Positions 19,577-37,313 are shown, numbered from the stretch's first letter. The stretch is DNA of 64,000 bases from a virus (IMGVR_UViG_3300020463_000001:64001-128000); one strand, 5' to 3'. Made by a program: numbers and translations. The notes: generated by a model from the letters alone, not told the origin.

Positions 19577-19592
19577 GTGATGAAAAAAGTTT

Positions 19593-19600
19593 TATAAATA
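19593..19600 (+). promoter_or_regulatory. T4-type late promoter (TATAAATA)
   Basis: Exact motif in the intergenic gap; AAGGAG RBS before the ATG at 19637. Confidence 0.8.
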
Positions 19601-19636
19601 GTCAGATAAGTAAAATATGTCTCAAAGGAGAAAATA

Positions 19637-22600
19637 ATGCCTGTTGCAAGTGGATATAGTATTCAAAGAAATGAAATCATTAATATACCTCATCGTCAGC
19701 AATATGAAACCCATTCTGCTGAAGGTACAAAGAACCAGTTTTTCTTGAGGTCTAAGATTGATTTCGCAAGTAAAGATTGGGAGTGGAGCATCAAAGTTGG
19801 TGGTGTTCGCTATGATTTAGACAGAACAATCTCTCCTGCCTCTGTTACAAATGGAGGAAACTCCCAAAGAAATGCTCAGGGAGTTTCAGCGGCCAGCGGT
19901 ACTGCTTCTGGTAAGACTGACCAAGCAATTTGGGATTCTTCTACGGAAACCTATGCAGAAGGAGATACTGTTTCTGGATCTGGCGCGGTAAAGTTTGATC
20001 AGAGTCTTGGTGTATTCGGGGGCATCGAATTCGCACCAGAGTATACTCCATCCGGCAACGAAATCCTAGAGATTACATATCAAGAACATGAAACTCAATG
20101 GACTGGTTCCAGAGGCGGACTTCTTTTCCAACTTGCAAGTGATATGTGTATCCATCCGTATGATTCTCCAGAGATATTCAAGTATATGGGTTCCGCTAGT
20201 CCAATTGGACTTTCAGAGTCTTTTAGTGAGGACTTTAGTGAGAACCCAGCAACTAACACTGCTCAAGCGATTGAGGATGCTAGAAAAACTGCAAGAACTC
20301 CTAATGCGGTTTACAAACTTATTAGAGAACACTCAGTAACATATTCGGCTGTAGATATATCGGACTCAGATCCGTCCAACATTACTCCAAAAACATTAAC
20401 TAGTGATTTCCCATTTTCTATTGCTGATTTAGGAGACGGAGAATTCCGAGTATCTATTGCAGGAAGAGTTATCCAAGATGAATACTGGTCTGTTGAACAA
20501 AACTCAGATCGTTCTGTAACCATTAAGTTATTGGTTGCTTCTTCTGAATTCAACTGGGTATCTGACGCAAGTTCCGTCGAAGTTATTGTAGGTTTTCACT
20601 GGAAGCATTCACTCGCAGTTCCATTTGGTGCAAAGTTTGGGCCATTCGATCCTGACGGCGGACAAATCACATATACCAACCCGTCTTCTGGAAATAGAGC
20701 AACTATATTATTTTCTGATCTTGTCGATGATACCGATCCAGATAATCCGGTTGCGACTGGACTTAACACTGGTAAAACTCAATCTGCAGACTTAGATTTT
20801 ATCAAGTCAGGAGATCTGTTCCTACTAGAATTCAAAGATGACGAACAGTTTATCCCTGCGTTTAATCTGATTCACCCCAAACCAGTAAGTAATTCCAAAG
20901 AAGATGTTCTTGCTGCACTGAAACAAGTCACTACAAAATTTCTTGTAGAATCCGCAAGAGGAACTGACTTGCTATCAGATGACGAATTGACTCCGATCTC
21001 TACCGATCCAACATCAAATAAGACCAAACCACAAAACTGGAGAATTCGTTTTGAGTATAGTGGTGATGGTGCTCAGATTAAGGTCAATGTTGCAACAGAA
21101 TATCAACTCCTTGATGACATGACAATTACGCAAGGGCAAGGAAGAGATGGTGCGAAATATCCCATCTACAGAGAGCCGGGCGAATTATGTGATGTTTACC
21201 AAGAACCAAGTATTGGTCGAGGTGTTGTCACCAGAATTCAAAAGGCCAAGTCACAATTCTTTACAAGAGTTTCTAAATCTGAGGATGAGGTCGCAAGATC
21301 ATATCCAATGTCATATAGAATGACAGTAACCGACCACGGCATGGGATTGTTCATATTTGACCAAGCGTCAGTAGACCAAGATGATGATTATTCTTGGTTC
21401 GTTGTACAACGTCATGTTGATCAATCTACTGGACAACCAGAATTCTCAGGTAAGTCTCCTGTACACTGTGTATACTCGCCAACAAAACGACCAGTAGAAA
21501 TTAGTGATTTAAACACATATTACTCAACACAAGATGTTGCAGATCTTTCTAAGCCAAGAAATATCTTCGATAGTTTTGGTAGAGAATTAGAAACAGAAGC
21601 TCCTACAATCTTTGTAAATAGAGATCAGAGTTTCTTTAATGACTTTGTGAACGCAATTGACTTCACAGGAACATACGCTATTCCAGAAACTTCTGGTGGT
21701 CAATCGGTGTATAAAGATGAACTAGATGTTGGTTTTATCGGCGGTGCGGATGTCAGTGATGATATCGCAATACTATATTGGAATGATGGAGCAAGCGATC
21801 CCAAACCAATAAATGAATTACAAATTTTAGGATTTGAGAGATTAGGAAGATCTGGACAAGGAACAAATATCGGAAGGGTGGCCAATACTATTGGGCCATT
21901 TGCTACGGCGACAGCACCGTCTGTTTCGATTAATTCTCAAAATGGTGCAAGTTGGCAGACAAACCCAGCACAACAGACTGGAACACAACTTTCTGGAAAC
22001 GTAACATTCCCAGTTTCTGCATTAGAAGCAGTTTCTAATTTTGAAGATGCTACTAGTCAAACTCCGGGCCCGACTGCTACTGCTCCTGCAACTCTTTCAG
22101 ATTGGGACGATCCATCTTATGCACTCTTAGATATCCTCTTCAACGAAGTATCTGCAAACAGAGAAAAGGTATTTGAAAGTTTAGTAGTTGCTCTTGACGG
22201 AGTAGAAATCCTACGAGATCCTAACGCATATGTCCTTACATATGACGAATGGGTACGAAATGGAGATCCATCAACAGTACAAAGATTCTTAGAGGGTCTT
22301 GATAATGCTGGTGTTAAAAATTTTGGAACTAGCTTTAAGTTGCCGGAAAATTCTAGCAATGTCACTGCGAACTTTATCACTAACATTGGGAATGCGAAAA
22401 ACGAATCTAAGAGTACCAGTAGTCAGTCTGGAGACGATTATGATACTGACTTTGTAACTAATATACAAGGTCTAAATACAACAGCCTATCTAGTAATTTC
22501 TACAGATTCTGTTGGGTTGAGAGGTAAATTGCCAGGAGATCCAATCTTCTCAGATTACGGAACATCTCAGCTGAACTTGACTGCAGGGCCCAACAGGTAT

Positions 22601-23308
22601 CTGTATGACTTCTTCAACCAGACTCTGTACTTTAGAGACACACCAAGATCAGGTTCTTCGTTCTCTATGAAGTTGGTGAACTATAACTCATCTACTCCAT
22701 CACAGACCACATACATTGTGACGGTTCCGCCGGATAGAGATCTTCCGGATCGTAACCAAAACTCTGTTAAGACTATCAACAGGTTTATCGTAAGAGAAAG
22801 TGATGTATTGAAACCTTGGGATTATCATACTTCTGCAACAATGCATGAGGCAGATTCTAACTCAATCATCAACCCACAAGAGCAGTTGTCAATCACTCAG
22901 GATAGGGATTTCGTATTTAGTTTCCCAACTCAGTTGACTTCTCAGAGATTCTATTATCCTAGAAGTGAATTAGACTTGATTGCGATTTCTTCTGCTGACT
23001 TCTCTACACAGGCTGGTCACATTGAAATTGACAAGTATTCTGACTCTGACGGAAAGAACGGAACTCTATTTGTTGGCGCTAATCAAGAAGGTATCAATCC
23101 TACTGGAATTTCTGATAGTGCTGGGCCATTTAGGTTTGCAGCGCATACCGGGCCAGACAACAGACAGTACATCTGGAAGAAGAATAAGAGGAAGTATGAA
23201 GGTATGATGAGTACAGAACCAAATGGTAACGGTATGAGAGTGTTCTTACAGGTTACTGGTTCTAGTGTACGTTATAGTGATGTTACCGAAGGTGAAGCTC
23301 CAGCATAA
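19637..23308 (+). CDS. Virion structural protein, paralog family A member 2
   Basis: 1223 aa; same conserved blocks (SYPMSYRMTVTDHG, DDDYSWFVVQRHVD, RFIVRESDVLKPWD, INPQEQLSITQD, NGNGMRV). Confidence 0.7.
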   Translation: MPVASGYSIQRNEIINIPHRQQYETHSAEGTKNQFFLRSKIDFASKDWEWSIKVGGVRYDLDRTISPASVTNGGNSQRNAQGVSAASGTASGKTDQAIWDSSTETYAEGDTVSGSGAVKFDQSLGVFGGIEFAPEYTPSGNEILEITYQEHETQWTGSRGGLLFQLASDMCIHPYDSPEIFKYMGSASPIGLSESFSEDFSENPATNTAQAIEDARKTARTPNAVYKLIREHSVTYSAVDISDSDPSNITPKTLTSDFPFSIADLGDGEFRVSIAGRVIQDEYWSVEQNSDRSVTIKLLVASSEFNWVSDASSVEVIVGFHWKHSLAVPFGAKFGPFDPDGGQITYTNPSSGNRATILFSDLVDDTDPDNPVATGLNTGKTQSADLDFIKSGDLFLLEFKDDEQFIPAFNLIHPKPVSNSKEDVLAALKQVTTKFLVESARGTDLLSDDELTPISTDPTSNKTKPQNWRIRFEYSGDGAQIKVNVATEYQLLDDMTITQGQGRDGAKYPIYREPGELCDVYQEPSIGRGVVTRIQKAKSQFFTRVSKSEDEVARSYPMSYRMTVTDHGMGLFIFDQASVDQDDDYSWFVVQRHVDQSTGQPEFSGKSPVHCVYSPTKRPVEISDLNTYYSTQDVADLSKPRNIFDSFGRELETEAPTIFVNRDQSFFNDFVNAIDFTGTYAIPETSGGQSVYKDELDVGFIGGADVSDDIAILYWNDGASDPKPINELQILGFERLGRSGQGTNIGRVANTIGPFATATAPSVSINSQNGASWQTNPAQQTGTQLSGNVTFPVSALEAVSNFEDATSQTPGPTATAPATLSDWDDPSYALLDILFNEVSANREKVFESLVVALDGVEILRDPNAYVLTYDEWVRNGDPSTVQRFLEGLDNAGVKNFGTSFKLPENSSNVTANFITNIGNAKNESKSTSSQSGDDYDTDFVTNIQGLNTTAYLVISTDSVGLRGKLPGDPIFSDYGTSQLNLTAGPNRYLYDFFNQTLYFRDTPRSGSSFSMKLVNYNSSTPSQTTYIVTVPPDRDLPDRNQNSVKTINRFIVRESDVLKPWDYHTSATMHEADSNSIINPQEQLSITQDRDFVFSFPTQLTSQRFYYPRSELDLIAISSADFSTQAGHIEIDKYSDSDGKNGTLFVGANQEGINPTGISDSAGPFRFAAHTGPDNRQYIWKKNKRKYEGMMSTEPNGNGMRVFLQVTGSSVRYSDVTEGEAPA

Positions 23309-23331
23309 GGAGTTCCCCCTTCGTAATATCT

Positions 23332-23339
23332 CATAAATA
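23332..23339 (+). promoter_or_regulatory. Probable variant late promoter (CATAAATA)
   Basis: One mismatch to consensus, in the intergenic gap before the GAGG RBS of 23356. Confidence 0.5.
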
Positions 23340-23355
23340 ATATAAAGAGGAAAGT

Positions 23356-26300
23356 ATGTCTTCGACTTTGAATTATCCATTTAAGTCTTCCGGATTTTCA
23401 GTACAAAGAAATGAAATACTTACTGTTCAACCTCCTTATTATACTCACCTATTACAAGGAGATGGGACATCAACTTCGTTTCCAGTTTATGCGGAAGAAG
23501 GAAAGAAACCAAATCTGAACTTATCAGACGTTCAGCAGTTTCGCGTGTTTCAAAACTCTGTCAATGGGCCAGAATATAGTTTAGATAATATAACTGGCGA
23601 TTCTTCTTTCTCAAACAACGGCGAATTCTATTATACTCCTCCGCAAACTTCAGATGATTCTGATAACGGAACTATAACATTTAGAACTGCTCCAGCTGGA
23701 GGATTAAAAATTCTAGTTCAATACTTTCCTGTAGTTAACTCAGGAAATGCTGATCCAGCAGGAATTCTTCAGAGTCTTGCGAAAGATTTAACATTACATC
23801 CATATCGAAATGATTTCTCTGAAGCATGGTCATCTAATCAACAGAAGAAATCTACTGCCACCATTAATCTTGCAACTAATTTTGTTGAACAGTCAGGAAC
23901 CATAACAGTAACTGATTCTGATGGGGCCTCAGTCAATTTTGATGCAAATGATGTCGGAAAAAGAATTAGAGAGAAATATGGATCTGGTATGTTTGTGATA
24001 GATTCTGTTACAGATAATGTTGCAAATATAACTGTAGTATCACCAAAGTCCGATTCCTCTACGACTTCTTATACAGAGGGAGAGTGGATGTTAATAATTC
24101 CTAGCTCTGATGTAGAACCTCAAGCATATAATATTATTTATCCGAGAGTACAAGATTCTGATATTACACATCCATCAATAAATTTTGATGGACAACAAGA
24201 TCACACCTCAGTTATGGATTGTATCAGAAGAATCGGGTCTGTATTTGTAGTAGAATCGGAAAAGGGAACAGACATTCTTTCCTCACTAAAAGACATTGAT
24301 TCTTCTAATACATTTATACCTACTACTGCCGTTGCTTCTCAAGTCGCACAGGAAAATCGAACACCACAAAAATGGAGAATGAGATTCTTTTATGATACTA
24401 GAGATGAATACATTCATGTAAATATTGGAACTAAATTTCAAATAATGGACGATGGAGATATATCTCAAACAGTAGGCAGGGATGGCATAACATCTGGCCC
24501 CACAAGAAATCCCGGCGAACTTTCCGATGTATACTATAAGTTTGACGAAAGAGGAAATAAAGCAAAATCTGGTTTTTATAGAAGACAAGGAAAGACTGAT
24601 ACAAATATCGCTGGAAGTTATCCTATATCATATCGACTTACTTGTTCGGATCATGGTACTGCGTTTTTTATCCAAGATCAAGCATCTATAGACGATGATG
24701 ATTATGCATGGTTTGTTGTGCAACGTCATGTCAATAATATTTCTGGTAAAATAGATCTGGAAGACGGAAAGTCTCCCGTTCATTGTGTCTATGCACCCTC
24801 TAAGCGTCCCACAGAGGCGTCCGATTTTAACATGGGTTTCTATGCATCATATTCATCACAAACCTTTGCTAACGGAAAGACAGTCATTGAAACAACAGAT
24901 TTGGGCCCAATCTTTAAAACTGATGGAACTCAACTAACACCAGAGACACCAATACAATTTACCATCGTTACTGACAAAGATCCAGTAGCAGTTTCTTCTG
25001 CAGGAACATCATACTATAGAGGAACAAGTTATAGAATCCCTCCTAGTGATTACGATCCAATTCACGAAATCAATATTGCAGATTATGCTTTGGGTTCTGG
25101 AAACTATGCACTTCCTCTTGGATCTAATTATACTACAAAGGGTGTTTATAACAAACTTATGCCACCCGATGTGGGACTTAATACTGCAGGCGATATGTTG
25201 GGATATCCAATTGGTCAGACAGGAACTCCAACTCCCAACGCACCAACTGATGCGATAGAAACTGCAGATCAGGAATTTGCGGTCATATCTTATGCATCAG
25301 CAGCAACATCTGGTATTCAATTATCTAATCCGGATGGGCTTAAATATGTCCCTAAAAAATTAAATACATTAAGTCTTTCTAGACAAGAACAACTGGGCCC
25401 AGCAGAATCTGGGTTATCTCCATATCAAGTTCAAATTTTCGACATTGATTCTGGGGGAAGTAATGGGTTAGCCGATCTTGTCGAAGGAATAGATTATAAT
25501 ATTGTAAAAGAAAATGATGAATACTGGTACTTTCAATTTGTCACAAAAGATACGGATAATATCATTCCTAATGCATACATATCTGATCTTGTTGAGGGCC
25601 CAAATATGCCCGGCGCAAATTCTTCCAATCCTAAATCTTTATCTAGGATGGGGTGGTATGATTCTTCTGGCATTTTAGTCGAACCAAGAAATGTTCTATT
25701 AAACGGGGCAATCATACCAAGCTCGCATTATACTATTGATCAGGAAATAAACTTCACAGTCAAGGTTGCGGCTTTTAATATTCCGGCAGGGTTCGCCTCT
25801 GCAGATCTTACTTTTGATAATGGAAATAGAACAGCATCTGGAGTATCTGTAACACAGACCGGAACACAAGGAGAGTTTGCAGTTTCTGTAGTAGTTAATG
25901 AATCAGACTCGACACCTTTCCCAATAGGTTCCAGTGTTATTATGGAAGACTCTGGAAACACTTATACGTTTATTGTTGACGAAGTTTCTACAACTATGGT
26001 AATAGATCCGATATTTAAATATGTTAGGGGCGATACTGTAGTACTTGGTAATAGTGATGTACTAGAAATTAAATCTTATTTCAGTCCAGAGAATACAAAG
26101 ATTATTTTATCTTATGTTTGGAATGGGGCTGGTTATCAAAACAAATATATCAATCCATTTGGAGGTTCATCACAAATAAGATCACAAACTCAGATTAAAC
26201 CTCTTTATGAAGTTAATAGGTTAGATGTTTTTGTAAATGGAGTAGAAATTAATTCTTCTCCGTATCCAAATGGGTATTTTATAGAATCTGATGGTGATGT

Positions 26301-27117
26301 AACATTTAGAGATATAAGTTTGAGTTTACAAAACGAATATGTCTACTCTATGCCTCAGGATACAATATATATTAAGAATGATTTAGTGAAGGGAGAACAA
26401 CTCAAATTCTCTTATGAAAATTATAATTCTGCAGAGGAAACGGACTCTTCTGCAGCATCTTATTTGTTGGAAATACCAGAAGATAGAGATATACCAAGTG
26501 CTTGGTCTAATTTGCACAAAGATACAATTGCAATATACAGATTTGTTGTGAGAGAAGATGATGTTCTTAAGCCTTGGGATTTTCATGTGTCTGCGATAAT
26601 TCCACAAATAGATAGTCCAGCTATTATCAACCCACAGGAACAATTGTCAATCACTCAGGATAAGACTTTTGTATTTACATTCCCTTCTCCTTTGACAACT
26701 CAGAAGTTTATCTATCCAAACTCTGAAATGGATTTACTGTGTTATTCTGGTGCAAGTTCATCTACCCTTGGAGGATTCACTAGTATTGGTACTGCAGCGT
26801 CTCCTAAATACGATCTGGATGGAAAACAAGTAAGTCTTGCAACTGACATCACTGGATCTTACAGTCTCGACAACGGAATTGGAGTTGCGCCTAGCGCATC
26901 ATCTGCGGGGGATTATACTTCTGCGAGTGGTGATGTTCTTAACTACAGAGACATATATTCTTGGCACACCGGAACTGACACATCAACAACTTCTGCATCT
27001 AGATCTTATGTGGGTATGCAATCTACACAAAGTTATGGAAACGGCATGAGAATATTCGTTCTAGTAAGAGGTGGGCCAATCAATCCTATATATTCGGATT
27101 TTGTTGTTAGGACTTAA
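23356..27117 (+). CDS. Virion structural protein, paralog family A member 3
   Basis: 1253 aa; SYPISYRLTCSDHG, DDDYAWFVVQRHVN, RFVVREDDVLKPWD, INPQEQLSITQD, YGNGMRI. Confidence 0.7.
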   Translation: MSSTLNYPFKSSGFSVQRNEILTVQPPYYTHLLQGDGTSTSFPVYAEEGKKPNLNLSDVQQFRVFQNSVNGPEYSLDNITGDSSFSNNGEFYYTPPQTSDDSDNGTITFRTAPAGGLKILVQYFPVVNSGNADPAGILQSLAKDLTLHPYRNDFSEAWSSNQQKKSTATINLATNFVEQSGTITVTDSDGASVNFDANDVGKRIREKYGSGMFVIDSVTDNVANITVVSPKSDSSTTSYTEGEWMLIIPSSDVEPQAYNIIYPRVQDSDITHPSINFDGQQDHTSVMDCIRRIGSVFVVESEKGTDILSSLKDIDSSNTFIPTTAVASQVAQENRTPQKWRMRFFYDTRDEYIHVNIGTKFQIMDDGDISQTVGRDGITSGPTRNPGELSDVYYKFDERGNKAKSGFYRRQGKTDTNIAGSYPISYRLTCSDHGTAFFIQDQASIDDDDYAWFVVQRHVNNISGKIDLEDGKSPVHCVYAPSKRPTEASDFNMGFYASYSSQTFANGKTVIETTDLGPIFKTDGTQLTPETPIQFTIVTDKDPVAVSSAGTSYYRGTSYRIPPSDYDPIHEINIADYALGSGNYALPLGSNYTTKGVYNKLMPPDVGLNTAGDMLGYPIGQTGTPTPNAPTDAIETADQEFAVISYASAATSGIQLSNPDGLKYVPKKLNTLSLSRQEQLGPAESGLSPYQVQIFDIDSGGSNGLADLVEGIDYNIVKENDEYWYFQFVTKDTDNIIPNAYISDLVEGPNMPGANSSNPKSLSRMGWYDSSGILVEPRNVLLNGAIIPSSHYTIDQEINFTVKVAAFNIPAGFASADLTFDNGNRTASGVSVTQTGTQGEFAVSVVVNESDSTPFPIGSSVIMEDSGNTYTFIVDEVSTTMVIDPIFKYVRGDTVVLGNSDVLEIKSYFSPENTKIILSYVWNGAGYQNKYINPFGGSSQIRSQTQIKPLYEVNRLDVFVNGVEINSSPYPNGYFIESDGDVTFRDISLSLQNEYVYSMPQDTIYIKNDLVKGEQLKFSYENYNSAEETDSSAASYLLEIPEDRDIPSAWSNLHKDTIAIYRFVVREDDVLKPWDFHVSAIIPQIDSPAIINPQEQLSITQDKTFVFTFPSPLTTQKFIYPNSEMDLLCYSGASSSTLGGFTSIGTAASPKYDLDGKQVSLATDITGSYSLDNGIGVAPSASSAGDYTSASGDVLNYRDIYSWHTGTDTSTTSASRSYVGMQSTQSYGNGMRIFVLVRGGPINPIYSDFVVRT

Positions 27118-27132
27118 ACCTTAATAAATTAT

Positions 27133-27140
27133 CATAAATA
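27133..27140 (+). promoter_or_regulatory. Probable variant late promoter (CATAAATA)
   Basis: One mismatch to consensus, abutting the terminator hairpin. Confidence 0.45.
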
Positions 27141-27166
27141 AAAGGAGGCTTGTGTCTCCTTTTTTT
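27141..27166 (+). terminator. Rho-independent terminator
   Basis: Stem AAAGGAGGC / loop TTGT / GTCTCCTTT (one G-U pair) followed by a T run, just after ORF 23356-27117. Confidence 0.75.
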
Positions 27167-27182
27167 ATATCCAGAGAACCCG

Positions 27183-30100
27183 ATGGCAGATTTTAAAACA
27201 ATATTTTTATTTGAAGATTATGTCGCTACGGAGATTGGCGCACAACCTCAATCTGTCGGATCGAATGAAATTTTAGTTTCCGGCTTGGATGATTCCGTTG
27301 TACTGGTTTTTCAAAATGGATTTATGTATGTTGATGATATTTTCTGGGGAAATATCGTATCCGTACAAAATGGCGATAGGCTACGATTACAAGTTAATCA
27401 TCAAGTTATAAACGAACCAGTAGAATATGAAATACTGGTTCTAGAAAGATCTTCTGGGTTTGTCTTTGAGGTCACTGATTCCTTTACATGGAATGTGGAA
27501 ATAAATGATCCTCTGGCAAATGAACCGGCAAAATTTTCAACACAATCTTCCACCGACGAAAATAATAGAATATCAGACATTCTGACATCTATTGTTGCTT
27601 CGAGTTTATCAGAAGCGATTACTGCGAATAGAAGTTCTGCAACCTCTACATTGGGCCAAATAGAACCAGAATTAATTCTAGAAGTTTTACAAAAGGCTGG
27701 ATTTATAGAAACAGATACTTCTGGAGAAATAGATTTAAATTCTCTAAGTCAAGTATTTGACAGCTTTAGAGAAATTATAAACGATACCTCTAGAAATATT
27801 GTAGAAGATATTTTATCCGACGAAACTCTAATACAACAATTCACTTCAGATGCTGAAGAAAATTTAATAGTAGACATAGAAAATACTTCAGAACAATTAA
27901 AAGAATCATTCACAAATAGATTGAACGAAATGTTTTCTGAAGTATCAGAAACTACTTCCGTACAAACTACAGATACAGATGAAACTCAAGACATTTCTGC
28001 AATAGATTCTACTACTATTGCAGAAGAATCATCAATAACTTCAGAAACGACACAAATAAATGTTTCTGAATTGGTAGAAGAAAAAACACAAACACTGACA
28101 GAAACAAAAGAAGTATTACAATCAATTCAACAATCTGTGGACGAGAGTTCTGATGATGCGGATTTGTCTCAACAGGCGTTTGCAGAATTCTTAGAGTCAA
28201 CTGAAATTAATGATAAAGTTCTTGGAGAACTTTCTGAGTTAATTGATTTACAAGATCCAAAACCAATAGATGAATTAATTGAGAATGTTGAACAATCTAT
28301 ACAAACATTCCAAGATTTACAAGAAATAGAACAATCTAATCCTCAAGTATTTGTAGATATTCAAGAAGCACTAGGAATTAATGTAGATCCACAGTTTGAT
28401 GAAACATTAGATATCATACAAGAAAATACCCAGTTATTTGGTGAGTTGGATGATCTAATACAAACTAATTTACAATTATTCCAAACCTCATTAGAAACCG
28501 ACAGGTTTGAAGCGAAATCTTTCCATGAAATAAGGTCAATAGGTTTCAGAACTATAGATGAATTTAGTGATAGGTTGTTTGCGGAACGATCAGAAATAAT
28601 AGATGTATTGACAAAATTAGTTTCTGAATTTATAGAAGAAGCCCTGATAAAAACCTTAGTCACTGCTGAAGAAGAATTATTAGTCGATGCACTACAGAGA
28701 TTGTTTGGAGAAGAACAAGAATCCTTTGATTTAGAAACTATAAGAAGAACAGAGATAACAGACATAGATGATGTCTTCGCAAAAACTTTAATAGAAGAAC
28801 TAGAAAAACAATCAGAATTTCAATATGATTTAGCAGAGACAACTCTCTTAGATACTCTGGTCAATCTCAATATTGTAAGTTTCGTAGAAACATTCCTAGA
28901 GAATGTTCAAAATCTAATAGAAGATACTGATAAGGTTCAGTTACTAGATCAAACCCTTATATCAGAACTAGAAAATAATTTTGAAAGTTTAATAATAGAA
29001 TCATCTTTTGATGATATAATTGACGAATTGAAGGCCTTAGATTTTACTGAAGATGTCCCAGAGATACAGGATCTATTGAGGTTTGTATCTACAGAAGAAA
29101 GTGAATTTGTAGAAAATATTTTAAGATTATTTGATACCGACGATTCAATCAGTGGCGAATCTATAATAGAAGATGAAACTACCGAGAGTGTCACTGGAGA
29201 AGAATCAAGAGAGGAGGAAACTGACTCTATTGTTTCTGGAGAAGATTCTATAGGAGATGAAACCGACGAAACAATTTCATCATCCGATGTAATAGGAGAC
29301 GAAAGCACTCAGACTGTTACTGGAGAGGAAGAACGCGAAGAAGAATCTGATTCTACTATCTTCGGAGAAGATATTATAGGAGATGAGTCTTCTACCACAA
29401 CAGAAGGTACGGACACTGTTGGAGAAGACACACAATCATCTCAATTAGCAGAAGACGAATTAGGAGAAACTTCTCCAGAGATTGTAAACGCAGAACAAGA
29501 AGTAATAGATACAGGAGATTCTTCAGATGTTTCAGAACAAGAAGTAGTCGATACTGGTGATTCTTCAGATGTTTCAGAGCAGGAAATAGTAGATACTGTT
29601 GCTCCTCCAGATAACGCAGTAGATCCAATATCTGATGTTGGTATATCTTCTGATGAAAGTTTAGAAGAATCCTCCGATACTGTTGCTCCTCCAGATAACG
29701 CAGTGGATCCAATATCTGATGTCGGGTTATCTTCTGATGAAGCAGAAGAAGAAGCATCCGATATATCAGATCCAGCAGATGAAGTATTGGAAGATGCTCC
29801 GGATGTGTCTATATCTCCAGAAGATGCGATAGAAGTTACAGAAGACACTGCGATATCTTCAGATGTCGGTGAGGTAGATCCAAATGACACTGGCGATTCG
29901 GCAGATCTTGGTGAAGTTCAGCCAGATGACACTGGTGATTCCGCTGATGTCGGAGAAGTAGATCCGAGCGACACTGGGGATTCTGCTGATGTCGGAGAAG
30001 TAGATCCGAGCGACACTGGGGATTCTGCTGATGTCGGAGAAGTAGATCCAAATGATACCGGAGACTCTACTGATGTTGGTGAAGTAGATCCAAGCGACAC

Positions 30101-30614
30101 TGGTGATTCTGCTGATGTTGGTGAAGTAGATCCAATAGACACCGGAGACTCTGCTGATGTTGGAACAGAACAACCAACAGATACTGGAGATTCTGCGGAT
30201 GTCGTTGAAGAAACACCTTCTCAAATCGGCGATTCTACCAACGATTTTGAAGAAGACCCATCTATCGTGGGCGATTCTACAGATGTAGTCGAAGACGATC
30301 CAACAAACATAGGAGATTCTTCCGATGATGTTGAAGATGAAGTAAGTGAAATAACAGATGAAGCAGACGAAACTGAAACTGACGCAGGAAATATTAGTGA
30401 TGGTGCTGGTGAATCAGAGACTCCGTTAGACAATGCAGACGACGGACAAGATCCAGATGAGGTGAACGATGACTTTGAAACAAAGGGAATCATACAACTC
30501 CGAGACGGGACGATGACATTTTATAAACTAAGACCATTCAGAATCGCAACTTCTGATCAATTCATTGGGCCATTTATAGATAGACTTGGAATAAGTAGGG
30601 ATATAAGGTTATAA
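27183..30614 (+). CDS. Very acidic repeat-containing hypothetical (probably virion) protein
   Basis: The start is more plausibly the ATG at 27183 (MADFKTIF), since the track's TTG at 27150 lies inside the terminator. Small beta-rich N-domain (SNEILVSGL..VQNGDRLRLQ), long D/E-rich helical region, 14-aa repeats, short basic C-tail. Confidence 0.75.
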   Translation: MADFKTIFLFEDYVATEIGAQPQSVGSNEILVSGLDDSVVLVFQNGFMYVDDIFWGNIVSVQNGDRLRLQVNHQVINEPVEYEILVLERSSGFVFEVTDSFTWNVEINDPLANEPAKFSTQSSTDENNRISDILTSIVASSLSEAITANRSSATSTLGQIEPELILEVLQKAGFIETDTSGEIDLNSLSQVFDSFREIINDTSRNIVEDILSDETLIQQFTSDAEENLIVDIENTSEQLKESFTNRLNEMFSEVSETTSVQTTDTDETQDISAIDSTTIAEESSITSETTQINVSELVEEKTQTLTETKEVLQSIQQSVDESSDDADLSQQAFAEFLESTEINDKVLGELSELIDLQDPKPIDELIENVEQSIQTFQDLQEIEQSNPQVFVDIQEALGINVDPQFDETLDIIQENTQLFGELDDLIQTNLQLFQTSLETDRFEAKSFHEIRSIGFRTIDEFSDRLFAERSEIIDVLTKLVSEFIEEALIKTLVTAEEELLVDALQRLFGEEQESFDLETIRRTEITDIDDVFAKTLIEELEKQSEFQYDLAETTLLDTLVNLNIVSFVETFLENVQNLIEDTDKVQLLDQTLISELENNFESLIIESSFDDIIDELKALDFTEDVPEIQDLLRFVSTEESEFVENILRLFDTDDSISGESIIEDETTESVTGEESREEETDSIVSGEDSIGDETDETISSSDVIGDESTQTVTGEEEREEESDSTIFGEDIIGDESSTTTEGTDTVGEDTQSSQLAEDELGETSPEIVNAEQEVIDTGDSSDVSEQEVVDTGDSSDVSEQEIVDTVAPPDNAVDPISDVGISSDESLEESSDTVAPPDNAVDPISDVGLSSDEAEEEASDISDPADEVLEDAPDVSISPEDAIEVTEDTAISSDVGEVDPNDTGDSADLGEVQPDDTGDSADVGEVDPSDTGDSADVGEVDPSDTGDSADVGEVDPNDTGDSTDVGEVDPSDTGDSADVGEVDPIDTGDSADVGTEQPTDTGDSADVVEETPSQIGDSTNDFEEDPSIVGDSTDVVEDDPTNIGDSSDDVEDEVSEITDEADETETDAGNISDGAGESETPLDNADDGQDPDEVNDDFETKGIIQLRDGTMTFYKLRPFRIATSDQFIGPFIDRLGISRDIRL
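29157..30458 (+). repeat. Coding tandem repeat, 42-bp / 14-aa period, 31 units
   Basis: Units run from ESIIEDETTESVTG to ETPLDNADDGQDPD; 31 x 42 = 1302 bp lands exactly on 30458. The core EVDPSDTGDSADVG units are near-identical, with exact DNA copies at about 29944-30048. Confidence 0.9.
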
Positions 30615-30615
30615 G

Positions 30616-33291
30616 ATGCCAGTATTTTTTGGATCCGGTAATATAATAACGAAAGCGAAGACAGTTCGTATGTCTTCATTTATCTATACTGAAGCTTCCG
30701 AAGTTGATATTACCTATGAAAACCACTTCAAAGAATATGTCATTGACATGGTTGATGGGTTTTCTGAGCGTCAAAATATTTACTATGATCCATTTAAATA
30801 CAGCGATTATCTTGACCGAGTTACTTCTACTTCATTTGATACCAAGGAAGTCTATAGTGGAGAAAGATACAATACATTTTTCAATTCCCCCGAGCATAAC
30901 TTGGAATATATTTTGGGATCTTCTTTTAATACAGAAGACAACACTAATCTTATAAACACCAAATATGTTTCGGAGATATATCAATCTCTGGATAATCTTC
31001 TTTCTACTGGAATGTCTTACGAAGAAGTAAGTGCAAAAATTCGAGTGCAATTGTTAGCATATTCATTTATGACTCTAGATGTATTTGAAAGAAAGAAAGA
31101 GTACGCTCTTAGAAATTTAAATATAGTCGAGGATCAAATAAAAGAACTTGGCGGACAAGATATAGAATCGAAACAATTACTTCAAGCACTTTATTTTAGC
31201 ACAAGTAGTCAAGATGTTAAATCCGCACTAAATCCTCTTGACGGAACTCTCAATTTAAATATTGTTACTGAACTATTTATTAAATCTAGACTAGAAGACT
31301 TCTCACTAAATAAGAGTTCGTTTATTTTAGATATAGAAGAAAGGGGAATATACAAAGAAATAGAAAGGGCCACTTTTGAAGAAACTGTTCCCATTCTACA
31401 AAATCCGGAAACTGGTCTTTACTATCTAGAGTTTAAAGATACGATAGAACAGATAGACGATTCTATGTTTTTTGATAACGATGTGGATAGAGTGTATGAG
31501 GCTCAGAATTTAATATACGGAAGTCCTAATGTAGAATATCATCCAATTAATAATTTCTTCCAAAGATATATGCCAAGACAAGCAGCATCAGGTGAACATC
31601 ATGAAATCATTTCGGATCTTGTAATTGAAACTGAATTTTATACCCAAGAGAAAAATGATATATTAATTAACCTAGAACCAAAGTATATCTCAGATAACGA
31701 CAAGACTTTTATTCGTAGTATATTCTATATTGAACTAGACGATTATCAGGATTATCTTGGTTATGTTCCATATGTTAAATCTTCTACAGATACTGCATAT
31801 ATTCCGGACGAACAGTTTTTACAAACAAAAGTTCACATCCCAGATAAGAATATCTTTAAGTTTAGATATGAAGAAATTAAGTTTGGTGGTAAATATGTGG
31901 TCACTGAGGCTGGAGAAGTATTTGTATTTTACAATACTATGGAAGCAAGATATGCCGGATACTATAAAGACTATGATACTCTTTATGAATACATCAATGA
32001 TTTATTCTTATCGACAAACTTGTCTTCGCATGATTCTATAAAACCACATGAAACATTATATTATAGACCAGAATCAAATCATCCAATAAACGGAGGATCT
32101 CATTTGGGTCATACTGTTCCTCATGTTATGGTCATGAGTAATAGCACCAGACTTATGGAAACAGAATACATAAAAGAAACTACTGCAGAAAATGTTGATC
32201 AAGAATACAGATTCTTTCAAAGTGTTGTGGGAAGAGATGCGGCGTTTGGAAAACTTTTTGAGTTTGACCCAGTATATCACGATTTAGATCAAAACGCAAT
32301 AGGAGATACTTTTAATTTTGTTTATGAGGTGGTCAGTGGCAGATTGCCTAATTGTTTGACTCTCAATAATTCTATCATTAGTGGAAATATAGGAGAAACA
32401 GAACAGTTTCTGAAACAGTATTCATACGAATCGTGGATTAAAAATCAAAATCTAGAAATAGATACCAACTACGAAGATTTCAATCCAGAAGAGGTCAAGG
32501 AAATAGAAGTTACAATTGTTGGTAGGGCCACAACGCGAGGAACTATAGATATTATAGATGACGTTGGATTTTCTATTGGAGATATTATAACACAAAGAGA
32601 CAGTTCTGGCAACTTACAGGGTTCTGCTACAATAACTAGAATTCTATTTAATTACATCAGAGAGTTTTCTGTTCTTGGCGCAGACCCACAAGATCTCAAT
32701 ATTATACGATATGAAATAGATAATATTGAAGGCTCATTCATCGCATCAGAGATAAATCAGATAATTGTGAACGATGAACTGAGAATTGTACTAGAAAGTA
32801 TCCAAAGGGCAAATGGGTTGATGGTTCTGGAATCAGAATTATCTACTGCTAGTGGATTAATAAAACAAATTGACTTAATTTTCCCCATAAATAATAATTA
32901 CACCTATGATAAAGATAGGTTCTTATTAAATACTGAAGGTATATCTGACAGAGAAGATCAATATGAATGGTTGACCTACATGAGAAGTCAAGGTCATTAT
33001 AGATTTGATGTAGATGCGAATATCGCTGCAATACAAGAATCCATAAATGAATTGACAAAGGATTACAGAGCAGGCAGAACCAATCTTACTCAGAAACAGT
33101 TTAATGAAGAAATAGAGTTTCTGGAGTTATCGAAAGGTAATCCTTTCGAAGAAGAAACTTACGAAAGATTAGAAAGAATAGAAGAATTTAAATTGGATTG
33201 TAAAGAAGAAGTGGACGAACAAACTTACTACGAAGACAATCCAGAAAGAGTTACGACAAGAGGATACCCAATATATGTCAGCTGTAACTAG
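30616..33291 (+). CDS. Hypothetical protein, likely virion-associated, with an Ig/cadherin-like segment
   Basis: 891 aa ORF; FVYEVVSGRLPNCLTLNNSIISGNIG resembles putative Ig repeats; FSIGDIITQ..GSATITRI module; 3' end overlaps the PAAR gene. Confidence 0.6.
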   Translation: MPVFFGSGNIITKAKTVRMSSFIYTEASEVDITYENHFKEYVIDMVDGFSERQNIYYDPFKYSDYLDRVTSTSFDTKEVYSGERYNTFFNSPEHNLEYILGSSFNTEDNTNLINTKYVSEIYQSLDNLLSTGMSYEEVSAKIRVQLLAYSFMTLDVFERKKEYALRNLNIVEDQIKELGGQDIESKQLLQALYFSTSSQDVKSALNPLDGTLNLNIVTELFIKSRLEDFSLNKSSFILDIEERGIYKEIERATFEETVPILQNPETGLYYLEFKDTIEQIDDSMFFDNDVDRVYEAQNLIYGSPNVEYHPINNFFQRYMPRQAASGEHHEIISDLVIETEFYTQEKNDILINLEPKYISDNDKTFIRSIFYIELDDYQDYLGYVPYVKSSTDTAYIPDEQFLQTKVHIPDKNIFKFRYEEIKFGGKYVVTEAGEVFVFYNTMEARYAGYYKDYDTLYEYINDLFLSTNLSSHDSIKPHETLYYRPESNHPINGGSHLGHTVPHVMVMSNSTRLMETEYIKETTAENVDQEYRFFQSVVGRDAAFGKLFEFDPVYHDLDQNAIGDTFNFVYEVVSGRLPNCLTLNNSIISGNIGETEQFLKQYSYESWIKNQNLEIDTNYEDFNPEEVKEIEVTIVGRATTRGTIDIIDDVGFSIGDIITQRDSSGNLQGSATITRILFNYIREFSVLGADPQDLNIIRYEIDNIEGSFIASEINQIIVNDELRIVLESIQRANGLMVLESELSTASGLIKQIDLIFPINNNYTYDKDRFLLNTEGISDREDQYEWLTYMRSQGHYRFDVDANIAAIQESINELTKDYRAGRTNLTQKQFNEEIEFLELSKGNPFEEETYERLERIEEFKLDCKEEVDEQTYYEDNPERVTTRGYPIYVSCN

Positions 33292-33573: not shown

Positions 33574-36393
33574 TTGGCATTTAATACACCAAGACCATTA
33601 AAGGCTATATTCCAGAGTGATGGAGAAGTTATCCTTGGAGAATTCAACGAGGATGATGTTCTTGAAGTCGCGAGTGGCGGAACTGGTACTAGTACACTAG
33701 ATCAATTTAGAACTAATATCAGCGCAATTAAATACGAAGATTTCGCAACCTTCGCAGACTTCCCTGCGATCCCAGAAAGTGGTAGACTCGCAAAAGATTT
33801 ATCTACCGGATCTCTATACTATTCTCATAATGATACTTGGATAGAAGTCGGCAGCGCACAAATAGTTTCTGGTACAGACGTTGCGGGAGTTGCAATAAAC
33901 GATGTCGAAGTAGAGAAACTAGTATTCGATGGCAATTTAATATTTGATTATGATTCAGTAACTAAAGTAGGAACTCTTTCTGTTAGTGCATCTCTAACAG
34001 CAACTGAACTGACTATAGGTCTTCCTACAGACGGAACTTACGATGATGGTGCGATAGGGATATCTGATACTGCGAAGACTGCAGATGTCATCGATGATCT
34101 CAACGAAGCACTAGATAATATCAGAAATAATACATTTGTCAAAAGTGTTTTATTTTCCGGTTCTCCCCTTACTGGAGGAGAAGGAATGAATGTTACTCTT
34201 AGCATAACTTCCGATGGAAATCCAAATCGTTATGACATAGATTGGGGAGATGGTTCTCAAACTAATGGATCCTCCAGTTCTACACCAAGTCACATTTATA
34301 CTTCAAATGTTAACAGTCCATATACTATTACTGTCCGGGCATTCCACAATCAGGCCACAGGAACTGGAAGCGAAGCATTTCACACAAGAGAAGATTATAT
34401 TATCGTATTTACTGCTAACCCTGCTGTTGCCTTTAGATTATACAGAAATTCTTCTGGAGGAACACCGTTAACAGGTAATGATTTGTATGTTGTAGAGGGT
34501 GGTTCTTTATATCTAGAAAATATTACAACAAACACTCTTATGGCAGATGTGACTTACGACATGGACTGGGGAGATGGTTCCACTAACGATACAATCGCAA
34601 ATGACTCTGCTGCTGGTGGAGTGAGCGGAGACAGACTACAACATACATGGGCGGATGGAACAGATAGTGGGACAGGAAGAGATACTATGAGACTCACACT
34701 AGATTCTCACACTACTGCAGACCCGAATGCAGTTCCAACAAATAGTACGTTAAGCCTAAAGGTTTACGATGACAGTATTGCCGCGCCCGATGGTTTGAGT
34801 ACTAAATCAATTTCTTTCACAGAGGATGTGGGTTCTTCGCCAAGACTTGCACATGGGTTTACAGATAACACCGGAGTCACAACTCAATCTGCGGGAAATG
34901 AAGTCAATAGAATTACATCAACTTCTGGGACTACTGAATCTAGTGAGATAACTTCATTTGCACATAACGCAGACTCCGGTGCGTTGAGTGCTATAGTAAA
35001 TGAAACTTCAGACGGTTCGGTTACTTTAACTACCGGAAGTAATGCAGGAACACACGGAAGTTTAGTTCTCACACAGGAAAGTGACTATAATCTTTTGAGC
35101 GCGCAAGGAACTCCCACTAGTTTTAATTCTAGTATATATCGCCCAGATTTATATAAAGGATTTAAGGCGAGGGTATCAAAAGACTCCAACACAATTCCGA
35201 ATGGTGTTAACAGTTTTCAGTTATCTCACACAGAAACCGGAGACACCAACAAAGTAGAATTTATCAAAGATGATTTGACATCTACTCCAACAGTTACAAA
35301 TGGTACTATAACAGAAAAGACCGGAACTTACAAGTATATTAGTGGTATTCCTTACTACGATACTGGATCGTCTTTAACATGGAGCGGAATACAAATAACG
35401 AACTTTATTGGCCAAACATATAGAGTAACTAATAGTGTGATAGAAGTTTCTTCGAGCACAAACTTAGAAGGGACAAGTGGAAGTTCTATTGCAAGTGAAA
35501 ATTATTCTTATTCTGAAGTTGACAATCCATTAGATTCTTTCTTGACTGGAGGAATACCAAATGCAAATACAGCAAAAGATACTCAGTATACCATAAAAGA
35601 TCTGACTGTCAATATCACACCGTCAAGTGTTCGGTCTGTAGAAAAAATAAAAGTTAGAGGTCTGAATGTCAACGGCTCTGGCAGTTATGAAACTAATGAT
35701 ATGATTTTACAGGTTCACACCGCAAATCAAACAGGAATCAACGAATTATCCATACCCGTAAGTTCATCTCTTGGAGATGGTTTCAATGACAACGGAGTGA
35801 GGATATTCGATTTTGCTTCAGAGACTACGGATAATCCTTCCATAAGTAACTCCACAAATTACTATACAAATAGTCTTTATGCAGAGTCATCAGATCCCGG
35901 CGTAGTAGGAACACAAGAAGCAACAATAAGATTGGGAAGATTGTCTCATAGTGTCGCAGATTATACTTCTGGATATCTTCCGGTTGGGCCAGATAGAAGT
36001 GGTGACACAGGAATTCAGTATTTTACTTTTGCGTTCAGAAGAACAGTGACTGCGAACTTCAATATCAATATATCCTCTGGGGGTATCAGTGGTATTTGGA
36101 TTGCATCGCCTGGCACTACAATAGATAACTCCAGTACAATCAATGGATGGTTGGATTGTTCGGTTCAGTATGCTGGTGCTGGTGTGCCTGGCGAGGATAC
36201 TGCTGCTGGAGGAAACGGAAGCAATGGTTGTGCGTCTACAGGTTCGGACAAAATACAATCAAACACCACACTAAGCGGTTTTTACAGAATGACATTGGGA
36301 ACAGAGAACTTGACAAACGCGACTGGAAATGTTGCATTGGTTAGAATTGCATTGAACTCTGGACAGTCAGTCAATTCTATTAGTATCACATAG
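33574..36393 (+). CDS. Virion structural/fibre protein with two PKD-like domains
   Basis: TTG start with AAGGAG RBS; GGTG motif in the N-terminus; YDIDWGDGS and YDMDWGDGS PKD signatures; Thr/Ser/Gly-rich. Confidence 0.65.
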   Translation: MAFNTPRPLKAIFQSDGEVILGEFNEDDVLEVASGGTGTSTLDQFRTNISAIKYEDFATFADFPAIPESGRLAKDLSTGSLYYSHNDTWIEVGSAQIVSGTDVAGVAINDVEVEKLVFDGNLIFDYDSVTKVGTLSVSASLTATELTIGLPTDGTYDDGAIGISDTAKTADVIDDLNEALDNIRNNTFVKSVLFSGSPLTGGEGMNVTLSITSDGNPNRYDIDWGDGSQTNGSSSSTPSHIYTSNVNSPYTITVRAFHNQATGTGSEAFHTREDYIIVFTANPAVAFRLYRNSSGGTPLTGNDLYVVEGGSLYLENITTNTLMADVTYDMDWGDGSTNDTIANDSAAGGVSGDRLQHTWADGTDSGTGRDTMRLTLDSHTTADPNAVPTNSTLSLKVYDDSIAAPDGLSTKSISFTEDVGSSPRLAHGFTDNTGVTTQSAGNEVNRITSTSGTTESSEITSFAHNADSGALSAIVNETSDGSVTLTTGSNAGTHGSLVLTQESDYNLLSAQGTPTSFNSSIYRPDLYKGFKARVSKDSNTIPNGVNSFQLSHTETGDTNKVEFIKDDLTSTPTVTNGTITEKTGTYKYISGIPYYDTGSSLTWSGIQITNFIGQTYRVTNSVIEVSSSTNLEGTSGSSIASENYSYSEVDNPLDSFLTGGIPNANTAKDTQYTIKDLTVNITPSSVRSVEKIKVRGLNVNGSGSYETNDMILQVHTANQTGINELSIPVSSSLGDGFNDNGVRIFDFASETTDNPSISNSTNYYTNSLYAESSDPGVVGTQEATIRLGRLSHSVADYTSGYLPVGPDRSGDTGIQYFTFAFRRTVTANFNINISSGGISGIWIASPGTTIDNSSTINGWLDCSVQYAGAGVPGEDTAAGGNGSNGCASTGSDKIQSNTTLSGFYRMTLGTENLTNATGNVALVRIALNSGQSVNSISIT

Positions 36394-36401
36394 AGGCAAT
36401 A

Positions 36402-37313
36402 ATGGCAATCTCCGACGATCAAAAAATTGACTATCTGTGGAAGAAGCTTGGTTATGGTGCTTCAAAGACAGATATCAATTCAATCAAAGGTGCGACAAAC
36501 GAGAGCATTCCTAGTCCTTTATTGATAAGAGGGGATAAATTGTGGTCAGATTCCGCACAGATTCCTTCTGTAATGCCTACATCATCTAATACCTATGTTG
36601 GTGTCTATTTGGATTCTCAGTCCAGTACAGTGGAATGTACGAAGGATTTGACCGCTTCTGCGAATAGGACATGGATTACAGGACTGACAGATTGGATACC
36701 GCCTGAGTTCGGATCCACATATCAGGTCAAAGTATACATCGAATCTTCTGGAATGTCAACCCCCCAATCTACAGGAGATCAAATATTTGCGGCTGGATCC
36801 GGAAATAATGACGAATGGTTTTTTGACTATCAAAGTGGTATTCTTCATTTTATTGGAACAAATCTTCCGAGCGGAATTAATGGAAATGTAGTTTATATAT
36901 CTGGTGCGAGATATGTCGGAGACTTTGGAGTTGGCGGCGGATCGATTGGAGCAAACATACAGTCTCTCGTAAATAATATACAGAATGTTCAGAACGCACT
37001 AAATAACTTCGAATATTCCGGACACACCCAGTCAGAAATAGATACTCTGGTTGCCGGCGGAGAACCTATAGGTATTGTATATGACGATACGACTGGTAAG
37101 TTTATTCCATCGACTATATCAGCATCAGGAGGAGGCGGAGGGAGTAGTAGTGTTCCATTCTTGCCTCTTTTACTAAATAACGGAACAGAAGAACAAGTTC
37201 CTCTATTGACCACATTCGATGGCCAAGAGTTGATCAGTGGTTTGTTGAGGTTTACATTAACAGACGGGAACAGAGACGATATTGATTTGTTAATATCCGG
37301 ATCCACTCCGTAA
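36402..37313 (+). CDS. Hypothetical virion protein
   Basis: 303 aa ORF with GAGG RBS; MAISDDQKIDYLWKKLGYG start and EWFFDYQSGILHFIG beta motif; Gly linker before a short C-terminal domain. Confidence 0.65.
   Translation: MAISDDQKIDYLWKKLGYGASKTDINSIKGATNESIPSPLLIRGDKLWSDSAQIPSVMPTSSNTYVGVYLDSQSSTVECTKDLTASANRTWITGLTDWIPPEFGSTYQVKVYIESSGMSTPQSTGDQIFAAGSGNNDEWFFDYQSGILHFIGTNLPSGINGNVVYISGARYVGDFGVGGGSIGANIQSLVNNIQNVQNALNNFEYSGHTQSEIDTLVAGGEPIGIVYDDTTGKFIPSTISASGGGGGSSSVPFLPLLLNNGTEEQVPLLTTFDGQELISGLLRFTLTDGNRDDIDLLISGSTP

Follow-up and report, generated by a model that had tools for sequence, protein, structure and literature searches.

How can a protein repeat that is predicted to be unfolded hold the length of its units constant over deep divergence, and what would a phage do with such a chain? 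The question is raised by a gene within a 64,000-nt stretch of viral DNA (IMGVR_UViG_3300020463_000001:64001-128000, hereafter the window), which belongs to the complete 200,733-bp genome record, with terminal repeats, of an uncultured marine T4-like phage. The product of this gene, which we call the acidic protein, is encoded by the most acidic open reading frame (ORF) in the genome; it is a clade-specific late protein of marine T4-like phages, and its rear 40% is an array of 14-residue units. An earlier interpretation of the DNA without database searches (the sequence-only reading) had proposed that the period of the array is structural, as in a beta-solenoid, a calcium-stabilised rod or a molecular ruler, and had named an acidic DNA mimic or charge shield as an alternative. 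Here, we find that the period is conserved among relatives, that its length appears to be constrained, and, as a new element, that the N terminus of the protein fits the capsid-targeting-type tags of the phage, suggesting, tentatively, a polyanion that would be loaded into the head.

A conserved 14-residue register

Translation of window 29157-30458 gives residues 659-1092, that is 31 x 14 residues, in which Lys is absent, Arg occurs twice and 154 of the 434 residues are Asp or Glu, in agreement with the sequence-only reading. Identity between residues 14 positions apart is 0.48, against ~0.11 in composition-matched shuffles (z = 24), with further peaks at lags of 28, 42, 56, 70 and 84; the period that had been proposed thus stands 24 standard deviations above shuffled sequence and is accompanied by its harmonics. 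A sliding measure of the same identity places the ends of the array near residues 645 and 1075, over a background of 1-5 matches per 28 positions. Units 9-16, 17-25 and 26-31 lie in one phase, shift 0 scoring 12-18 and other shifts at most 4. The claim of an unbroken register therefore holds decisively for units 9-31, whereas for units 1-8, a 14/42-residue repeat of their own, the window sequence alone leaves the phase with respect to the other units ambiguous, and only homolog comparison supports it.

The core unit (block C in Table 1) consists of Glu-Val followed by two D-x-x-D-[TV]-G hexads. Scored over 132 distinct units pooled from all homologs, position 6 is acidic in 86% of units and positions 4, 8, 11 and 14 in 0-3%, while position 4 is hydrophobic or Pro in 74% and position 14 is small in 81%. 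Positions 1, 2 and 6 are usually acidic and 9 and 12 often so, 8 and 14 are small, and residues that are regularly hydrophobic or Pro are found at position 4 and partly 13, i.e., at about two positions per unit. The unit may also show a period-3 (polyproline-II-like) spacing of Asp and a stripe of non-acidic positions every 3.5 residues.

Relatives were collected with a profile of the non-repeat part, by word-based searches, and by scans of IMG/VR and metagenomes. Against 1.84 billion representative proteins, the profile returned six matches, namely four family fragments, one distant member and one weak repeat protein (P0008) that is apparently unrelated; the word-based searches yielded two full-length homologs, P0002 and P0009, and the scans yielded nine loci, all from ocean samples. 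No homolog was found in cultured phages (tblastn, 50,697 phage records), and P0006-type relatives were not found in IMG/VR.

We laid out every homolog in 14-residue rows from a fixed anchor. Compared with the 31 units of the window protein, L001 and L010 have 30, L011 has 29, L002 and P0002 have 27, and L013, which ends at its contig end, has at least 20. The conserved C-terminal end-piece begins in phase in all stacked close homologs, the register holding in seven that have 27-31 units, and in eight homologs all length differences within the array are multiples of 14, a comparison that the proposal of a constrained period survives. In P0009, which is ~42% identical, 23 units can be counted back from the C-terminal anchor, and four landmarks (the Gly at position 14 of block A, the LGE.S.EI..A/EQE junction, the perfect core units and the end-piece) stand in the phase of the window although the numbers of units between them differ. 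When the window protein is aligned globally with P0009, 17 of the 18 gaps in the 658-residue N-part are not multiples of 14, whereas the gaps in the 434-residue array measure 28, 14, 56 and an 11 + 3 pair; at the rate of the N-part, ~11 out-of-phase gaps would be expected in the array, and none is observed net. Unequal crossing-over accounts for unit-sized changes in the well-repeated core, but it does not explain the absence of small indels in the degenerate blocks, whose self-similarity is at background level. The periodicity is thus real, statistically overwhelming and conserved, and the evolutionary comparison supports a constraint on the 14-residue length that would not be a mere product of recent expansion.

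The substitution patterns were analyzed both between relatives and between units. The ratio of nonsynonymous to synonymous substitution rates (dN/dS) between orthologs is 0.03-0.4 in the four array blocks, near that of the flanking domains, and block B is the most conserved part of the protein, with 93-97% identity between relatives. Among paralogous core units, the proportion of synonymous differences (pS) is 0.56 and that of nonsynonymous differences (pN) 0.11 (pN/pS 0.2); this large excess of pS shows that the units are old and that their peptide sequence has been maintained. The exact DNA copies that had been noticed at 29944-30048 are real, the duplicated segment being slightly longer (Table 1), and units 20 and 21 are identical in DNA, with other core units just 64-81% identical. 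These values indicate that the units are under purifying selection and that only one duplication (29943-30049) is recent.

Structure prediction gave no fold for the array. An AlphaFold2 run on the full protein (6 sequences) reached a mean predicted local distance difference test score (pLDDT) of 33, with the array as coil at 25-30, and a second run, restricted to units 17-31 and the end-piece (8 sequences), likewise returned coil at about 38-47, the array being without secondary structure. Its net charge of 0.35 per residue places the array far on the disordered side of the charge-hydropathy boundary. No Pfam family matched the array or its core, and no PDB chain matched the array in a sequence search, both at E <= 10; PHROGs and Pfam returned nothing for the whole protein, its parts or P0009, and searches of the ESM Atlas gave no match. 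These predictions favour a non-globular array over a folded one, and they are compatible with a fold that needs cations or a partner, AlphaFold2 having been given 6-8 sequences and no ions.

N-terminal tag and possible loading into the head

In T4, residues 1-10 of the internal protein IPIII (MKTYQEFIAE) are enough to load a protein into the head, with targeting dependent on residues 4 and 7 and cleavage by gp21 on residues 8 and 10 (PMC9026906, PMC8442874); this capsid targeting sequence was described by Mullaney and Black 1996, as reviewed in PMC9026906. The acidic protein begins with MADFKTIFLFE, in which Phe4 and Ile7/Phe8 are residues of the targeting type, the aromatic position 4 and Ile7/Phe8 being conserved in all homologs including P0009, while Leu9-Phe10-Glu11 is found in the window protein and all close homologs, and is replaced by Arg-Phe-Asp in P0009. 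Similar N termini are carried by a gp68-like core protein (MKTFSQFLE), a DUF6267 protein (MHDFTDFLTE) and a kinase-like protein (MRDYKQIFLNE) of the same phage. The pattern M.[DT][FY]..I?FL.?E, written from these three tags alone and leaving the acidic protein out, matches in 401,462 six-frame residues only its three source proteins and the acidic protein (0.03 matches expected), and in the 127-kb relative G001 it matches only the gp68-like gene and the ortholog of the acidic gene. The Pfam domain of the DUF6267 protein begins at residue 16, and the tag is therefore an add-on in that protein. The phage also encodes the corresponding head machinery, namely a gp21-type protease (phrog_207, genome 132922-133569), a gp22 scaffold (phrog_237) and small gp67/gp68-like genes located between the portal and protease genes.

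The three other tagged genes lie at genome positions 132650, 167098 and 168820 (L015:4650-4919; L014:2099-3352 and 3821-5182), the third being kinase/zeta-toxin-like.

Based on these features, the protein can be described as an 11-residue tag, a small beta-rich domain, ~530 residues of predicted acidic helix, the array, and a 51-residue neutral end-piece, the array of 27-31 acidic units in close relatives and 23 in the distant one being a likely extended polyanion. By analogy with the internal proteins of T4, the tag most likely directs the protein to the prohead core, where the gp21-type protease would cut after Glu11; the polyanion would then either stay with the DNA and exit at infection, or fill the core and be expelled. 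The register is kept by selection, the probable reason being that every unit serves as a single motif for binding a cation or a partner and leaves no linker to spare. Tentatively, we take as the best reading of the locus a polyanion that is loaded into the head and whose repeat is non-globular but constrained in its register.

The parallel with T4 IPI-III and Alt comprises a tag of ~10 residues with an aromatic position 4, hydrophobic positions 7/8 and, in the window protein and its close homologs, a putative Leu/Ile-x-Glu cleavage motif, the presence of genes for a gp21-type protease and core proteins, and the use of one tag on unrelated proteins of one phage. The T4 internal proteins differ in their small size and strongly basic character, and those known so far act as inhibitors of GmrSD nucleases (PMC8442874; PMC12373910), whereas the acidic protein has a repeat structure, 1143 residues and a net charge of -268, and so lacks the small, basic character of IPI-III. 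A further parallel is with T4 gp22, gp67 and gp68 and the peptides derived from them (PMC9958956), the proteins being made late, located inside the head, acidic, and either helical or without structure, and the phage's own gp22 and gp67-like proteins carry Glu/Thr/Val-rich acidic stretches of similar composition. The differences are that the T4 proteins show no sequence relationship to the acidic protein and no tandem array, and that the acidic gene is encoded at a distance from the head genes; a profile comparison with gp22 gave no similarity, and homology to this scaffold was rejected.

Several observations weigh against loading into the head. The P0009 tag (MVDFNDIFRFDE) has no Leu-x-Glu, while it retains the aromatic position 4 and Ile7/Phe8. 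The internal proteins known to bear such tags are of small size and strongly basic (PMC8442874), and the other tagged proteins of this phage are basic as well, with net charges of +15 to +44; next to packed DNA, a chain with a net charge of -268 poses an electrostatic difficulty. The gene is located in a ~45-kb block of fibre-like and appendage-like genes, away from the head genes, and the 11-residue tag could simply be the first strand of the N-domain. Moreover, a spacer that is simply disordered would not usually hold so strict a register, conserve its Gly and Asp positions and be under strong purifying selection, and these features leave room for a cation-induced fold that AlphaFold2 would miss.

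The DNA mimic or charge shield that had been offered as an alternative gains some support from the capsid-targeting-like N terminus. Taken one step further, the protein could be a pre-packaged giant polyanion, a tag-loaded "protein DNA-mimic" of net -268 that is injected with the genome, an extension that we regard as quite doubtful. In that case, the periodic Asp array would, within the host and ahead of exposure of the DNA, absorb divalent cations or those defence or nucleoid proteins that bind DNA, and the protein would be the acidic, disordered, repeat-based counterpart of the small basic internal proteins of T4. T7 Ocr and ArdA (cited in PMC12373910) show the same extreme excess of Asp and Glu and the anti-defence logic of proteins that arrive with, or just after, the DNA. 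DNA mimics of this type present a folded carboxylate surface that imitates the phosphates of B-DNA, and they inhibit type I restriction-modification or BREX. Ocr and ArdA fold as small dimers and are synthesised early, from the DNA as it enters, whereas the acidic protein is giant, late-expressed and predicted to be unfolded, and it has only its acidity, with no sequence similarity, in common with them.

Neighbouring genes and alternative roles

Canonical T4-type genes for sheath, tube, portal, gp21 protease, gp22 scaffold and major capsid protein are located just after the window, and hub, gp5, gp25 and gp48-type genes lie just before it, together with an 824-residue tape-measure candidate. 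The neighbours of the acidic gene are all large fibre-like or appendage-like late genes, consistent with its main rival role, a serious one that we nevertheless judge somewhat unlikely: an external flexible filament or "hair," in which a conserved end would anchor the protein on the virion head or a tail appendage, and the array would form an extended, hydrated, cation-binding brush that prevents particles from adhering to one another or to surfaces other than the host, or that makes the first contact with the host. In favour of a filament, three upstream paralogs and a fourth downstream carry the phrog_12249 core, the acidic gene is tightly, and probably translationally, coupled to the 891-residue gene downstream, and the following 939- and 303-residue genes (window 33574-37313) are homologous to phiCbK gp073 and gp074 (L024 34386-37037), the 303-residue protein being 32% identical to gp074 (E 1e-24). 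In phiCbK, gp073/gp074 belong to the head module and directly precede gp76, a 2,799-residue flexible, repeat-expanded protein proposed as a head filament (PMC3556154). The gp073/gp074 family is also present in the huge phages Atu_ph07, Phosso and SCTP-2, and hair-like capsid fibres have been reported for Atu_ph07 (PMC12796354).

The acidic protein shares with gp76 its very large size, its flexible, coil-predicted nature, its expansion by tandem duplication and a gp073/gp074 neighbourhood. It is not similar to gp76 in sequence, being acidic and not Gly-rich, and gp76 is rich in Gly, Ala and Pro, contains a lectin-like domain that the acidic protein lacks, and stands in another gene order (PMC3556154); adjacency to the gp073/gp074 homologs is moreover positional evidence only. 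Two further points speak against a filament, in that the tag is present on the acidic protein and on 0 of 28 other large ORFs in the window, and in that Pfam and PHROGs reveal no trimerisation, Ig-like, lectin or other fibre domain.

The four giant paralogs (window 17600-27117 and 37390-43386) match phrog_12249 under the label "tail sheath." The true gp18 sheath (phrog_23, E 3e-117) is encoded after the window, at L015:93-2147, so that this label is misleading and the paralogs are accessory virion parts. The gp073/gp074 family may for its part mark a capsid-fibre module common to a T4-like myovirus and giant siphoviruses. No useful PDB sequence match was obtained for the 891-, 939- and 1253-residue neighbour proteins.

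A second rival, which we consider unlikely, is a rod folded by cations, that is a Ca2+/Mg2+-induced beta-roll of 14 residues per coil, or another solenoid, with one turn per unit. It would explain a register held over deep divergence without small indels, the small residues fixed at positions 8 and 14, the Asp fixed at positions 6, 9 and 12, and the two D-x-x-D-[TV]-G hexads of the core unit. Seawater contains ~10 mM Ca2+ and ~50 mM Mg2+, and RTX domains are disordered without Ca2+. With the RTX beta-roll and thrombospondin type-3 repeats, the array shares short Asp/Gly-rich units and a strongly negative charge, but those repeats are built on GGxGxDxUx or DxDxDG, whereas the units here are 14-residue, made of two hexads plus two residues. 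The units lack Gly-Gly and do not fit the RTX nonapeptide (PF00353), and no RTX, thrombospondin type-3 or other Pfam repeat, and no PDB chain, was found at E <= 10. Both AlphaFold2 runs show the array with no strands and at low confidence, and beyond position 4 and partly 13 there is no regular hydrophobic ladder, too little for the core of a solenoid. The coil at pLDDT 25-46, the empty Pfam and PDB searches and the ~two hydrophobic or Pro positions per unit thus leave the beta-solenoid and the calcium-stabilised rod of the sequence-only reading unsupported.

It is improbable that the protein acts in assembly only, serving the giant appendage proteins encoded nearby as an acidic scaffold or chaperone and being itself missing from the finished particle. 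Acidity and helical structure are typical of phage scaffolds and fibre chaperones, the phage's own gp22 has a net charge of -68, the acidic protein contains a long acidic helical region, and its gene keeps its synteny with appendage genes in all relatives. However, such a role leaves both the periodic array and the tag unexplained, the profile of gp22 shows no similarity, and 1143 residues would be very large for a chaperone.

Less probable still is a polyprotein that the head protease would cut at each unit boundary ([V/L/I]-Gly-Glu), freeing 14-residue acidic peptides. In T4, gp21 breaks down gp22, gp67 and gp68, the acidic proteins of the core, to small peptides (PMC9958956), [LIV]-x-Glu falls at unit position 1 in 9-12 units per complete homolog, and the core array with the end-piece is always the largest stretch without strict [LI]-x-Glu sites. 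On the other side, the array has no excess of strict [LI]-x-Glu sites (5 observed, 4.9 expected), units of the TEQP type, dominant in L013, have lost the boundary motif, and Val at P3 is not documented as acceptable. One protease cut per unit is thus a weak candidate, strict sites being unenriched and the boundary motif gone in L013.

The molecular ruler, read as a tail ruler or tube lining with one unit (~4 nm extended) per tail ring, is scarcely credible and was rejected: the match between 31 units and the 31-32 rings expected for an 824-residue tape measure scaled from T4 is numerology only, a separate tape-measure candidate of that length lies in the canonical hub cluster beside the baseplate hub (phrog_150) and tube-like genes, and in G001 the unit number does not covary with the tape measure (801 against 824 residues, -3%; 27 against 31 units, -13%).

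If the tag of the acidic protein has been read correctly, head loading of the T4 type would extend beyond small basic proteins and enzymes to a huge polyanion, which would raise the matter of charge balance in the packed capsid and of the role of an injected chain. Wherever the protein is located, its array is a clear natural example of a repeat that has kept its register although prediction leaves it unfolded, with 17 out-of-phase indels outside the array, and it could serve as a good test object for a hidden periodic state, cation-bound or partner-bound, of "disordered" acidic repeats. The family is tiny (six matches in 1.84 billion), which limits its general importance unless other phages turn out to use the same principle.

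Gene limits, domains and ancestry

The features of the locus are listed in Table 1. We place the start of the gene at ATG 27183 and not at TTG 27150 of the ORF list, because the Met at this position opens all homologs and is the first ATG in frame. Ten plus-strand matches to ATAAATA in the window sit in short gaps directly 5′ of genes; their total count in the window is not above chance, so that the motif is a positional hint only for a late promoter. The 891-residue gene is probably translationally coupled to the acidic gene, since it starts one base beyond its stop codon.

Table 1. Features of the acidic gene and its borders (window coordinates)
Feature	Position	Strand	Remarks
ATAAATA, T4-type late promoter motif core	27134..27140	+	43 nt 5′ of the start codon of the acidic gene
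Hairpin followed by T-run, terminator-like	27140..27163	+	between the preceding gene and the acidic gene
Acidic protein gene	27183..30614	+	1143 residues; 311 Asp/Glu, 43 Lys/Arg, net -268
Capsid-targeting-sequence-like tag MADFKTIFLFE, ending Leu-x-Glu	27183..27215	+	residues 1-11
Small conserved domain, predicted beta-rich	27216..27557	+	residues 12-125; net charge of residues 1-125, -15
Long acidic region, predicted helical	27558..29156	+	residues 126-658; net -101; many indels among relatives
Second 14-residue unit S[VI]QTTDxDETQDTx	27957..27998	+	residues 259-272; single copy
Block A, units 1-8	29157..29492	+	Glu/Ser/Thr-rich units with 42-residue super-repeat; dN/dS 0.2-0.4
Block B, units 9-16	29493..29828	+	residues 771-882; two EQEV.DTGDSSDVS units and 28-residue doublet
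Block C, units 17-25	29829..30206	+	core units EVDPxDTGDSADVG
Exactly duplicated DNA	29943..30049	+	65-nt self-match (29943-30007) at offset 42, uninterrupted
Block D, units 26-31	30207..30458	+	degenerate units, phase as in blocks B and C
Conserved end-piece	30459..30611	+	residues 1093-1143; net charge 0; predicted beta-hairpin at residues 1100-1116
891-residue protein gene	30616..33291	+	no family assigned; starts one base past the stop of the acidic gene

Outside the array, AlphaFold2 predicts strands at residues 39-85 with low confidence, in the domain of residues 12-125 that is 43% identical in the distant homolog P0006/P0009, and helices over residues 124-649, where pLDDT reaches 60-83 only at residues 290-390. 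A hairpin near the C terminus is predicted in the full-length run, and in the second run only the hairpin of the end-piece reaches pLDDT 77. No paralog of the N-terminal or the C-terminal end-domain was found in the genome. The second type of 14-residue unit, S[VI]QTTDxDETQDTx, forms a mini-array of variable size, with one copy in the window and in L010, two in L011, three in L001 and none in L002.

Several ORFs of 90-149 residues run antisense across the array (window 28949-30493, minus strand) and are without independent support; such ORFs are an expected by-product of a repeat rich in GAx/GTx.

The closest relative of the gene differs between its front and its rear. The N-part of the window protein is 91% identical to that of L001 over its whole length (~95% over aligned positions) and 67-77% identical to L002, whereas its last six units and the end-piece are 95-98% identical to L002 and 70-84% to L001. 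This difference places recombination breakpoints within the array, and the alignments indicate that the acidic gene is a recombination mosaic. Block B, with its 28-residue PPD(N/S)AVDPI doublet, shows an unusually low dS of ~0.34, compared with 1.1-2.8 in the N-part of the same pair, which suggests a recent exchange or a constraint at the DNA level.

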